DNA from: Escherichia coli
Lineage (GTDB): Bacteria > Pseudomonadota > Gammaproteobacteria > Enterobacterales > Enterobacteriaceae
Assembly: GCF_003334305.1 (NCBI RefSeq)
Contig: NZ_QOWS01000003.1
Length of the DNA stretch: 64,000 bases
Reading direction: 5' to 3' (one strand)
The position numbers were made by a program, and so were the translations under genes. Positions 3,226 to 58,583 of this stretch are shown one piece after another. Below the pieces are notes generated by a model. That model was not told where the DNA came from and did no database searches. It saw nothing but the letters and a program-made list of their open reading frames with translations. Position 1 is the stretch's first letter; each line of letters begins with the position of its first letter.

Positions 3226-3267
3226 TTTTCTTCCTCTAATGGGATTTTTGTAGGGTACGACAAGGTT

Positions 3268-3399
<132 letters not shown>

Positions 3400-9901: not shown

Positions 9902-11566
9902 ATGTTAAAACGTATCAAGATCGTGACCAGCTTACTGCTGGTTTTGGCTGTTTTTGGCCTTTTACAACTGACATCAGGCGGTCTGTTCTTTAATGCCTTA
10001 AAGAATGACAAAGAAAATTTCACTGTTTTACAAACCATTCGCCAGCAGCAATCCACGCTGAATGGCAGCTGGGTCGCGTTGTTGCAGACGCGTAACACCC
10101 TCAACCGCGCGGGTATCCGCTACATGATGGATCAGAATAATATTGGTAGCGGTTCAACCGTTGCTGAGCTGATGCAGAGTGCCAGTATTTCGCTGAAACA
10201 GGCGGAAAAAAACTGGGCGGATTACGAAGCGTTGCCGCGTGACCCGCGTCAGAGCACCGCCGCAGCGGCAGAGATCAAACGTAATTACGATATTTATCAC
10301 AATGCGCTGGCGGAGCTGATCCAACTATTAGGGGCAGGCAAAATCAACGAGTTCTTTGATCAGCCGACCCAGGGATATCAGGACGGTTTCGAGAAGCAGT
10401 ATGTGGCTTACATGGAGCAAAACGATCGGCTCTATGATATCGCCGTCAGCGATAACAATGCCTCCTACAGCCAGGCTATGTGGATTCTGGTGGGCGTGAT
10501 GATCGTCGTACTGGCGGTCATCTTCGCCGTCTGGTTCGGTATTAAAGCCTCGCTGGTAGCGCCAATGAATCGCCTGATTGACAGCATTCGTCATATTGCA
10601 GGCGGCGATCTGGTGAAACCGATTGAGGTGGATGGCTCTAATGAGATGGGGCAACTGGCAGAGAGTTTGCGCCATATGCAGGGAGAGCTGATGCGTACCG
10701 TCGGTGATGTGCGCAACGGGGCCAATGCCATCTATAGCGGTGCCAGCGAAATCGCCACCGGCAATAACGATCTCTCTTCGCGCACCGAGCAACAGGCCGC
10801 TTCGCTGGAAGAGACGGCAGCCAGCATGGAGCAACTGACCGCAACGGTGAAGCAGAACGCCGAAAATGCGCGCCAGGCCAGCCATCTGGCGTTAAGTGCT
10901 TCTGAAACGGCGCAACGCGGCGGCAAAGTGGTGGATAACGTGGTGCAGACTATGCGCGATATCTCCACCAGTTCGCAGAAAATCGCCGATATTATCAGCG
11001 TAATTGACGGCATTGCCTTCCAGACCAATATTCTGGCTTTGAACGCGGCGGTTGAGGCTGCGCGTGCGGGTGAGCAAGGGCGCGGTTTTGCGGTGGTTGC
11101 GGGAGAAGTGCGTAATCTGGCCCAGCGTAGCGCCCAGGCGGCTCGTGAAATTAAAAGCCTGATTGAAGACTCGGTGGGGAAAGTGGATGTTGGCTCTACG
11201 CTGGTCGAAAGCGCCGGGGAAACAATGGCGGAGATTGTCAGTGCTGTGACCCGCGTGACGGACATTATGGGCGAAATAGCTTCTGCTTCTGATGAGCAGA
11301 GCCGTGGTATCGATCAGGTTGGCTTAGCGGTTGCTGAGATGGACCGGGTAACTCAACAGAACGCCGCGCTGGTGGAAGAATCTGCCGCCGCCGCCGCCGC
11401 GCTGGAAGAGCAGGCCAGTCGCCTGACCGAAGCTGTGGCAGTGTTCCGGATTCAGCAACAGCAGCAACAGCAGCGTGAAACATCGGCTGTGGTAAAAACC
11501 GTGACGCCAGCTACGCCGCGTAAAATGGCAGTGGCAGATAGCGGGGAGAACTGGGAAACGTTTTAA
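9902..11566 (+). CDS. tsr: methyl-accepting chemotaxis protein I (serine chemoreceptor)
   Basis: 554-aa ORF; HAMP and MCP signalling domains; C-terminal NWETF pentapeptide. Confidence 0.95.
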
Positions 11567-11577
11567 TCGCCATAAAA

Positions 11578-11607
11578 ATGCCCGATAAGCAAAATGTTAT
11601 CGGGCAT
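11578..11607. terminator. Hairpin between convergent tsr and lgoT
   Basis: ATGCCCGATAA…TTATCGGGCAT inverted repeat between the two stop codons. Confidence 0.55.
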
Positions 11608-11614
11608 AGGGAGA

Positions 11615-12976
11615 TTAATCTTTACGTGGGTCGTTGATCGGCTGACGAACCAGGAAGATGTACGCCAGTGCCCCCGCTGCGGTGACGCAACCGCAGATGA
11701 TTAGTGCCAGACGGAATGAGTGGGTGGTATCAACAATAAAACCAGTAATGATCGGCGCAAAAGAGGCGCAGATGAAGCTGGCAAAGTTCTGGATACTGCC
11801 CACCGACGCAGTCATGCGAGAAGCAACTGCGACGTGGATCAAGCCCCAGCAGGATGTTCCGGCAAAGTGAATACAGAACAGTGCCATGCCAATCAGCAGA
11901 ACCGCTGTCATGGATGTTGTCGCTTGCGGTACGACCAGCGTAAAGGCGGCAGAACAGAACATCCCGGCAATAATGCAGATCTTACGGCTTTTAATCGGAG
12001 CCATTCCCCCTTTGACCAGCCAGTCAGTAACGTAACCGTTGACCAGCATCCCGGCAGCCCCAAACAGGAAAGGGATAGCCGCCATCAACCCTGTGCTTTT
12101 TAAATCCAGGTTATAGGCTGTTTGCAGGTAACCAGGAAGCCAGGCCAGATACAGCCACGCAGTGTAGTTGATGCCACTGAATCCGAGCATCATTCCCCAC
12201 ATTGTGCGGTTACGGAACAGGCTGCGCCATTCGGCAAAACTGAGCGGATCTCGGCGGGCATTGACGCTACCTGCATTGAGATAAGCTTGTTCAACGGCAG
12301 TCAGTTCTACGTGCTCGCGGTTGCGATAGAGCATATACCAGCCAATGGCGAGAAAAATCCCCAGCACACCAATGGTAATAAACATCCCACGCCAGCCCAT
12401 CACCAGCATCATCGCCGCCAGAATCGGTGGGCTTACGGCAACGCCAATGGTAGAAGCTGCGTTGAAGAAGCCCATCGGGCGTCCGCGCTCTTTGATGTTG
12501 AACCAGTCGTTAATGACTTTTACGCCACATGGGTTCATCGGCGCTTCACCAATCCCCATACCGATACGCACCAACACGAACTGCGTAAAGCTGTGCACCA
12601 TGCCAGACATGGCCTGGAACAGTGACCAGAAGAACATCCCCAGTCCCAGCATCAGGCGTGGGCCTTTACGATCCAATAGTGGGCCGCAAGGAAGTTGCGC
12701 AATCCCGTAAGCGAGTGAAAACACGGAGAGCAAAGCGCCGATTTCGGTGGCACTTAATCCCAATTCTTCACGAATCGTTAAATTTGCTACCGACAGCGAA
12801 CTGCGGTCGAGATAATTGATTACCGCCGCAAAAAATAATAACAACATGGCGGTGGTTTGAATGCGTTTAATTCGGGTACTGCGTTGAACTAATCCATCTG
12901 GTGGCACGGGAATATCTGCCGACGAAGATGGAGTAAATGAAGAACGCGGATCGAGGGTGATATTTTCTTTTTCCAC
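11615..12976 (-). CDS. lgoT: L-galactonate:H+ symporter (MFS)
   Basis: 453-aa MFS ORF matching YjjL/LgoT from memory. Confidence 0.9.
   Translation of the reverse strand: MEKENITLDPRSSFTPSSSADIPVPPDGLVQRSTRIKRIQTTAMLLLFFAAVINYLDRSSLSVANLTIREELGLSATEIGALLSVFSLAYGIAQLPCGPLLDRKGPRLMLGLGMFFWSLFQAMSGMVHSFTQFVLVRIGMGIGEAPMNPCGVKVINDWFNIKERGRPMGFFNAASTIGVAVSPPILAAMMLVMGWRGMFITIGVLGIFLAIGWYMLYRNREHVELTAVEQAYLNAGSVNARRDPLSFAEWRSLFRNRTMWGMMLGFSGINYTAWLYLAWLPGYLQTAYNLDLKSTGLMAAIPFLFGAAGMLVNGYVTDWLVKGGMAPIKSRKICIIAGMFCSAAFTLVVPQATTSMTAVLLIGMALFCIHFAGTSCWGLIHVAVASRMTASVGSIQNFASFICASFAPIITGFIVDTTHSFRLALIICGCVTAAGALAYIFLVRQPINDPRKD

Positions 12977-58514: not shown

Positions 58515-58583
<69 letters not shown>

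Follow-up and report, generated by a model that had tools for sequence, protein, structure and literature searches.

Within a 64,000-nt stretch of an Escherichia coli genome (NCBI RefSeq assembly GCF_003334305.1, contig NZ_QOWS01000003.1; hereafter the window), the serine chemoreceptor gene tsr carries two short tandem repeats, one encoding glutamines at the start of the C-terminal tether and the other encoding alanines in methylation helix MH2. Here we document the alleles of both repeats, their step sizes and frequencies, and their occurrence on different as well as near-identical tsr backgrounds. We consider it about 75% probable that these are in-frame tandem repeats changing copy number by replication slippage, with the commonest allele of each present in the window, that the glutamine polymorphism is close to neutral, and that the alanine-length alleles are probably impaired and short-lived. 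The features on which this account depends are as follows.

9902..11566, plus strand: tsr coding sequence (serine chemoreceptor, methyl-accepting chemotaxis protein I, MCP-I), an open reading frame (ORF) of 554 amino acids (aa) plus stop.
11378..11380, plus strand: codon E493, which we take to be adaptation (methylation) site 4, placed from the reading frame.
11384..11401, plus strand: six-alanine tract A495–A500 of methylation helix MH2, (GCC)5+GCG, a rarely length-variable triplet repeat.
11405..11407, plus strand: codon E502, presumably adaptation site 5, placed from the reading frame and invariant in a 38-sequence alignment.
11450..11548, plus strand: C-terminal tether I517–E549, 33 residues in the window allele, by the counting convention of PMC10561060.
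11453..11473, plus strand: glutamine tract Q518–Q524, (CAGCAACAG)x2+CAG, a length-variable 9-nt tandem repeat, identified from the sequence and by Tandem Repeats Finder.
11549..11563, plus strand: C-terminal pentapeptide NWETF, from the translation.

Glutamine alleles differ by whole 9-nt units

Tsr length variation was surveyed with a 183-nt query, which found a match in 5,383 of the 5,426 complete E. coli genomes; the matched stretch was 183, 174 or 201 nt long. Glutamine alleles were then called with designed queries bearing 25-nt flanks, for which a 9-nt gap moves the match to another identity band. The modal allele, which is also that of the window, has seven glutamines (4,097 of the 5,383 genomes; protein of 554 aa, tether of 33 residues). 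Four glutamines were found in 1,211 genomes (22%), K-12 included, giving a protein of 551 aa with a 30-residue tether, while ten (72 genomes; 557 aa, 36-residue tether) and thirteen (three genomes; 560 aa, 39-residue tether) were rare; these protein lengths hold where the alanine tract has six codons. The initial annotation of this DNA had put K-12 Tsr at 551 aa with fewer glutamines, which agrees with the MC1061 sequence (551 aa, four glutamines), and the tabulation across genomes that it proposed yields tracts of 4, 7, 10 and 13 residues in place of a universal seven.

Intermediate lengths were absent. A query for a single glutamine matched exactly the 1,211 genomes with four, so that no allele below four was found among the 5,383 complete genomes, and designed queries detected no 5-, 8-, 9-, 11- or 12-glutamine allele in complete genomes; a 6-glutamine allele was likewise absent for flanks identical to those of the window only. 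In the 30 loci that we read base by base the tract was (CAGCAACAG)n+CAG, with n of 1 to 4 and the CAA interruptions in phase in all of them. Glutamine alleles therefore consist of one, two, three or four whole units, with one exception, a 9-glutamine allele on 14 contigs of a wider protein collection. Its DNA (Logan assembly SRR23972359, 1752–1778) reads CAG CAA CAG CAG CAG CAG CAA CAG CAG, which is the 7-glutamine tract with an added CAGCAG, and indicates that 6-nt steps also occur.

Clones were uniform in tract length. All sampled O157:H7 genomes had seven glutamines and all sampled K-12 derivatives had four, while the four listed assemblies of strain HS, and three of strain 8178, all had ten.

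Two side observations concern the survey itself. In 43 of the 5,426 complete genomes there was no match to the tsr 3' end, and three matches fell on plasmid-labelled records. Strain MIN9 (O176:H45) carries a Gln-to-His point change inside the tract (QQQQQHQ), the sole exception among the loci read directly.

Structure of the two repeats

The window gene is assigned by its close match to K-12 Tsr along the whole protein, periplasmic serine-binding domain included (99% identity to the MC1061 protein over all residues outside the glutamine tract). The domain order is TarH, HAMP, MCPsignal (precomputed Pfam PF02203, PF00672 and PF00015 on identical proteins), NWETF is present at the C-terminus of the translation, and the matching gene is labelled tsr in RefSeq in every genome examined. 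The 554-aa ORF at 9902..11566 (plus strand) is as the initial annotation described it.

The glutamine tract reads CAG CAA CAG CAG CAA CAG CAG in frame (11453–11473), which upholds the earlier description of a (CAG/CAA)7 run encoding seven glutamines at Q518–Q524. Tandem Repeats Finder resolves it as 2.4 copies of a 9-nt unit, CAGCAACAG, at 100% match, a solution that outscores the triplet reading (78% match). The alanine tract has a period of 3 nt (5.7 copies, 100% match) and consists of (GCC)5 at 11384–11398 followed by GCG; the five GCC codons previously noted are thus real, but they encode part of a run of six alanines rather than AAAAA, and the frame begins at 11384 rather than 11385. From the end of (GCC)5 to the start of the glutamine tract is 54 nt. 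Neither the glutamine run nor the (GCC)5 run arose in any of 100 shuffles that preserved dinucleotide composition, and each has a single occurrence in the 64-kb window, where no further perfect triplet run of at least five copies is present.

Both repeats had been placed in the C-terminal linker, with the glutamines just upstream of NWETF. The glutamine tract does lie in the non-conserved tether, but it forms the first part of that chain and NWETF follows 25 residues further on, while the alanine run lies in MH2, between adaptation sites.

Alanine-tract alleles are rare and favour uninterrupted repeats

The alanine tract of MH2 has an adaptation site on either side (sites 4 and 5) and is conserved in receptors of the 36H class (PMC9282233, PMC11571029). 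The window sequence, SAAAAAAL, has six small residues between these sites and a spacing of 13 residues between QQN487 and LEEQ501; this spacing was shared by all 74 of the related receptors taken from other Enterobacterales, in which the alanine codons are mostly mixed.

Designed queries against the same complete E. coli genomes detected alanine-length variants in 33 (0.6%): four alanines in 12 genomes, five in 16, seven in one (ETEC1703) and eight in four, with none of nine or more. Six variant loci were read directly, and the 4-alanine allele is known from exact 62-nt matches and exact protein look-ups. Natural carriers include UTAK-1, AR_0013 and HM670 for five alanines, 19-5 and JNEC-KY176 for eight and, at the other repeat, Z1323HEC0355 for thirteen glutamines. 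The run is interrupted in K-12 (GCC GCT GCC GCC GCC GCG). For at least 29 of the 33 variants the GCC run is uninterrupted and its flanks match the window exactly, a background found in ~49% of all genomes (binomial P ~3e-6). The proteins of UTAK-1 (five alanines), the window (six) and JNEC-KY176 (eight) are otherwise identical, and their genes differ at 0–1 nt in 1,626 nt.

Exact-sequence look-ups in public assemblies placed 5-alanine proteins on 678, 424 and 159 contigs, 4-alanine proteins on 76 and 130, and 8-alanine proteins on 45 and 25. Further combinations exist, namely seven alanines with seven glutamines and five alanines with four glutamines. Recurrence on this scale, 25 to 678 contigs, identifies the variants as inherited alleles and not errors.

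Separately, the tsr gene of ETEC1703 is interrupted by a nonsense codon (position 301) and carries a pseudogene annotation (L148:343-2001); it lies 1 nt from the intact 6-alanine genes of strains 1916D6 and E2. Larger in-frame duplications also occur as rare variants of E. coli Tsr. One protein of 570 aa has a 16-residue duplication in the HAMP region, and another of 568 aa duplicates 14 residues of helix MH1, a length of exactly two heptads, across adaptation site E304.

A register shift of the cap against the adaptation segment is undescribed in the relevant studies (PMC9282233, PMC11571029). On our account, a change of one or two alanines would put distal MH2 out of register with the segment bearing the adaptation sites, so that such alleles are probably impaired and short-lived, though some clones carry them. 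Alanine-length changes are thus probably harmful, with impaired or biased signalling and purifying selection as the prediction, and this fits both the low frequency of the variants (0.6%) and the invariance of the spacing across species. It is also conceivable, although we regard it as improbable, that the variants are working receptors in which the MH2 cap is register-shifted with respect to the adaptation sites, or that the tract acts as a slow, reversible slippage switch lowering and restoring serine sensing in a lineage. If so, these strains would provide natural mutants with which to test the packing-transition model at the 'dynamic junction'.

Slippage, recombination and sequencing error

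The two tracts have the properties of coding variable-number tandem repeats (VNTRs): their units lie head to tail in the DNA, their alleles differ by whole units, with a range of four to eight codons for alanine, and length changes occur on identical or near-identical genes and less often on interrupted runs. From these patterns we infer slippage as the mutational mechanism. The earlier idea of slippage-prone triplets therefore survives in part: both tracts vary in length and (GCC)5 appears to slip by triplets, but the glutamine steps are mainly 9-nt units of three residues. Under the mechanism that we propose, the glutamine tract would slip almost always by the 9-nt higher-order unit (n of 1 to 4) because its periodic CAA codons break the triplet register, whereas the alanine tract would slip by single or double GCC triplets, at low frequency and only on an uninterrupted run.

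Alternatively, each length allele may have arisen once or a few times and then spread by recombination within tsr, the repeats being no more mutable than ordinary sequence. To examine the history of the glutamine alleles, a neighbour-joining tree was built from 25 tsr genes after excision of the tract, which left 1,644 nt with 68 informative sites. Length states were scattered on this tree: 11 changes were counted across its 25 tips, and shuffled labels gave 13.2 on average. Very similar genes differed in glutamine number: BEN2908 (four glutamines) and CUVET19-970 (seven) have two differences in 1,644 nt, and Es_ST80 (ten) and RM14723 (thirteen) have 5 nt differences. Such pairs, separated by 2–5 nt, argue against spread of a few original alleles, as do the exact whole-unit steps at both repeats, the 5- and 8-codon alanine variants on tsr otherwise identical to that of the window, and the strong enrichment of alanine variants on uninterrupted runs. 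We therefore hold recombination of this kind to be possible but doubtful as the full explanation.

There are, however, several observations and sampling features that weigh against slippage as the general account, the first of which favour recombination. All 11 sampled alleles with ten or thirteen glutamines share GCT at codon 496 (window 11387–11389, 63 nt upstream of the tract), a codon present in only 2 of the 14 sampled alleles with four or seven (EDL933 and K-12). This link with tracts of at least ten glutamines could stem from common descent followed by recombination, or from chance. The haplotypes to the left and right of the tract are also mosaic; strain HS, for example, combines the left flank of PapRG-04-4 with the right flank of K-12. 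Taken together, the sharing of GCT-496 and the mosaic flanks mean that some of the tree's scatter may be due to recombination of a few original alleles, and recombination probably spreads some glutamine alleles alongside repeated slippage, accounting for part of the glutamine pattern. The sample used for the tree was, moreover, deliberately rich in rare alleles. Most census counts derive from BLAST identity bands and match spans, with 30 loci read base by base, and the genome collection is biased to clinical, outbreak and laboratory strains, so that the frequencies are those of a database and not of natural populations. Finally, the presence of a 5-alanine protein on 678 contigs argues that one successful clone, at the least, tolerates this allele.

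Errors of sequencing or assembly might also produce extra glutamines or unusual alanine counts. Short GC-rich repeats are error-prone in some assemblies made from long reads only, and the 13-glutamine protein, encoded as a single RefSeq protein (WP_000919582.1) by all three genomes with this allele, is absent as an exact sequence from the wider protein collection. Those three genomes nonetheless differ in source, one being from a human in South Korea, another from a Mexican sheep and the third from a dog for which no country is recorded. The 7-glutamine allele is present in ~4,097 complete genomes, full-length matches to the first 24 kb of the window, at a rounded 100.0% identity, come from several independent complete genomes (top bit score, strain A7), and the variant proteins are found on 25 to 678 contigs from many sources. 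An artefact of assembly, which the initial annotation had wished to exclude, is effectively refuted for the main alleles by these genome counts, independent 100.0% matches and contig recurrence, and error as a general explanation is hardly credible.

Predicted effects on the tether

The kinase-control domain of Tsr has its last conserved position at residue 517 (PMC4692393). The tether is counted from I517, which gives a 30-residue chain in K-12 (PMC10561060), and NWETF is the docking peptide for CheR and CheB (PMC4692393, PMC7390727). Our 38-sequence alignment is consistent with this layout, with conservation ending after F515 and 33 non-conserved residues (I517–E549) preceding a pentapeptide of the xWxxF type. 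An AlphaFold2 monomer model built from the same 38 sequences has a predicted local distance difference test (pLDDT) score below 50 from residue 514 on and draws a single helix from 393 to 527, through the glutamine tract.

The drawn helix raises the possibility that the glutamines prolong MH2, in which case each unit would move the anchor of the tether along the HAMP domain by ~0.45 nm. PolyGln following a helix can itself be helical, which would favour such an extension. With model confidence below 50 from residue 514, however, the drawing is without weight, residue 517 is the last conserved position (PMC4692393), and Tar has no glutamine tract. Electron paramagnetic resonance work (Bartelli and Hazelbauer 2011), in the form in which it is cited elsewhere, describes the equivalent chemoreceptor segment as unstructured. 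Helical extension is accordingly a rather improbable explanation.

On the slippage account, the tether would be an unstructured chain, so that gains or losses of three residues would be tolerated with the reach of the enzymes only slightly altered. In Tar, with chains of 22, 29, 34 and 46 aa, tether length measurably shifts CheR positioning and adaptation, the relationship between CheR position and length being linear at 0.128 nm per residue (PMC10561060). We entered this value into the translated-Gaussian model of the same study; as a rough extrapolation from Tar to Tsr, the predicted CheR density at Tsr's own sites, relative to four glutamines, is ~0.79 for seven, 0.63 for ten and 0.49 for thirteen. 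Each added unit of three glutamines would thus lower the density by ~20–25%. Effects of glutamine length are therefore expected, in this model, to be small and graded, and the polymorphism is probably close to neutral and loosely held around 33 residues. For both repeats, we infer all functional consequences.

The initial annotation had suggested that the repeats tune the length of the tether for CheR and CheB. In a stronger form, tether length would adjust the reach of these enzymes to a receptor's own sites and those of its neighbours, and different lengths would have been selected in different lineages. The effect of Tar tether length on CheR positioning and adaptation (PMC10561060) would be compatible with such selection, as would the persistence of four natural length classes and the occurrence of the 4-glutamine class on several tsr backgrounds. 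Clones are uniform, however, with no sign of rapid switching, and the predicted effect per step is small. One length dominates and equals the orthologue mode of 33 residues, a pattern that looks like weak stabilizing selection plus mutation and not diversifying selection. Among the sampled rows, allele length showed no visible association with host or niche, for which no formal test was made. Adaptive tuning is thus an unlikely explanation.

Origin of the glutamine repeat

A whole-database protein search with full-length Tsr returned only E. coli, at 97–100% identity, among the 120 matches listed. A view across species was therefore obtained with a degenerate DNA pattern for ENWETF-stop, using one genome per species, which gave at least 120 stretches; among those listed there was no Salmonella, and E. 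albertii was the only Escherichia species besides E. coli. Tsr orthologues from 14 other species (full-length, at least 78% identity) had tethers of 32–35 residues (modal length 33), except for one of 48, and no glutamine run in these 14 reached three residues. In Citrobacter sp. R56 and the E. albertii type strain the tether begins IQQEQQR.

Among the species sampled, the pure glutamine repeat appears to be confined to E. coli. The ancestral state was deduced from E. albertii, in which the gene is a pseudogene, and from Citrobacter only; on this sequence comparison, the 7-glutamine allele looks like one that retains the usual tether length and the K-12 allele like a derived contraction. Since a one-unit tract retains only a 3-nt repeat, re-expansion from it should be rare.

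The E. albertii gene itself merits description. In the type strain, NBRC 107761, tsr is a pseudogene with stops and an internal deletion that fuses an early periplasmic part to the last ~45 codons (L025:5709-5969). The remnant tail, AVAVFHIQQEQQRQCEASAVVK...ENWETF, encodes a 33-residue tether.

Genomic context

Immediately downstream of tsr, an inverted repeat at window 11578–11607, ATGCCCGATAA / TTATCGGGCAT, occupies the gap between tsr and lgoT, which converge, and is probably a transcription terminator shared by the two. The downstream neighbour alternates by strain (window 11567–12976): lgoT/lgoR are present in the window, K-12 and EDL933, and a TRAP (tripartite ATP-independent periplasmic) transporter permease pair in LF82, BEN2908 and O26:H11. 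Upstream of tsr, some strains have hpaR and others lack it. Repeat alleles of tsr are found in both contexts of neighbouring genes.

Two other repetitive elements were observed in the window. An ACC/ATT-rich codon repeat at 58526–58563 lies directly upstream of a long thrA-like ORF identified from the sequence. It would be the leader peptide region of the thr operon, a known attenuator, in which case the window crosses the conventional start of the E. coli map. At 3266–3380, about two copies of a 52-nt unit containing GCCGGATGCG...CTTATCCGGCC resemble the intergenic palindromes known as repetitive extragenic palindromic sequences and bacterial interspersed mosaic elements (REP/BIME).

Implications and comparison with known systems

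The Tsr protein of K-12 is the reference molecule for chemoreceptor signalling and adaptation, yet it has the shortest natural tether and represents a minority allele (22%). The usual E. coli Tsr tether has 33 residues, as in the orthologue mode, and rare strains reach 39. A published argument holds that the Tsr tether is shorter than that of Tar because the methylation sites of Tsr are closer (PMC10561060); this argument rests on the K-12 allele alone. Models of adaptation calibrated on K-12 may misdescribe the typical strain, most E. coli having a longer Tsr tether. Natural alanine insertions and deletions of one or two residues, in turn, provide ready-made test cases for models of the hinge between the cap and the adaptation sites.

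The gene, its tether, its alanine tract and in-frame slippage polymorphism as such are already well known, and what we describe is a modest, well-defined polymorphism and no new system. In the open-access texts that we searched, neither the variation of the tsr repeats nor their use for strain typing had been described. A close parallel is the linker and NWETF tether of the high-abundance chemoreceptors Tar and Tsr, studied by the Hazelbauer and Parkinson laboratories and treated in the tethered-particle model (PMC10561060), since the glutamine tract opens this same tether after residue 517; that work used the 30-residue K-12 Tsr chain and engineered Tar, whereas the alleles reported here are natural chains of 30, 33, 36 and 39 residues. 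Likewise, (GCC)5+GCG encodes the MH2 alanine tract at the 'dynamic junction' between cap and adaptation sites described by Flack and Parkinson (PMC9282233, PMC11571029), which is conserved in the literature but has natural alleles of four, five, seven and eight alanines here.

As repeats, the two tracts share with the in-frame coding VNTRs of bacteria, used in multiple-locus VNTR analysis (MLVA) typing, short units within a gene, whole-unit differences between strains and clonal stability. They differ in having few copies (one to four units of 9 nt; four to eight triplets) and low diversity. Mixed CAG/CAA coding of a pure glutamine run also recalls the CAA-interrupted CAG polyglutamine tracts of eukaryotes. 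In CAG tracts, CAA interruptions limit single-triplet slippage. In tsr, by contrast, the interruptions are periodic and so create a 9-nt slipping unit, the tract is very short, and there is no context of aggregation or disease.

The simple sequence repeat (SSR) contingency loci of Haemophilus, Neisseria and Campylobacter resemble the tsr tracts in mechanism, since slippage of strands within a simple repeat can in principle be reversed. We rejected the view of tsr as such a phase-variable locus because clones are uniform in glutamine length (O157:H7, K-12, HS and 8178), and rejected on/off switching because all changes are multiples of 3 nt in the ORF and the variant proteins are full length. 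Contingency repeats are long, vary at high frequency within a clone and switch expression on or off through frameshifts or promoter spacing, whereas those of tsr are short, remain in frame and are uniform within clones.

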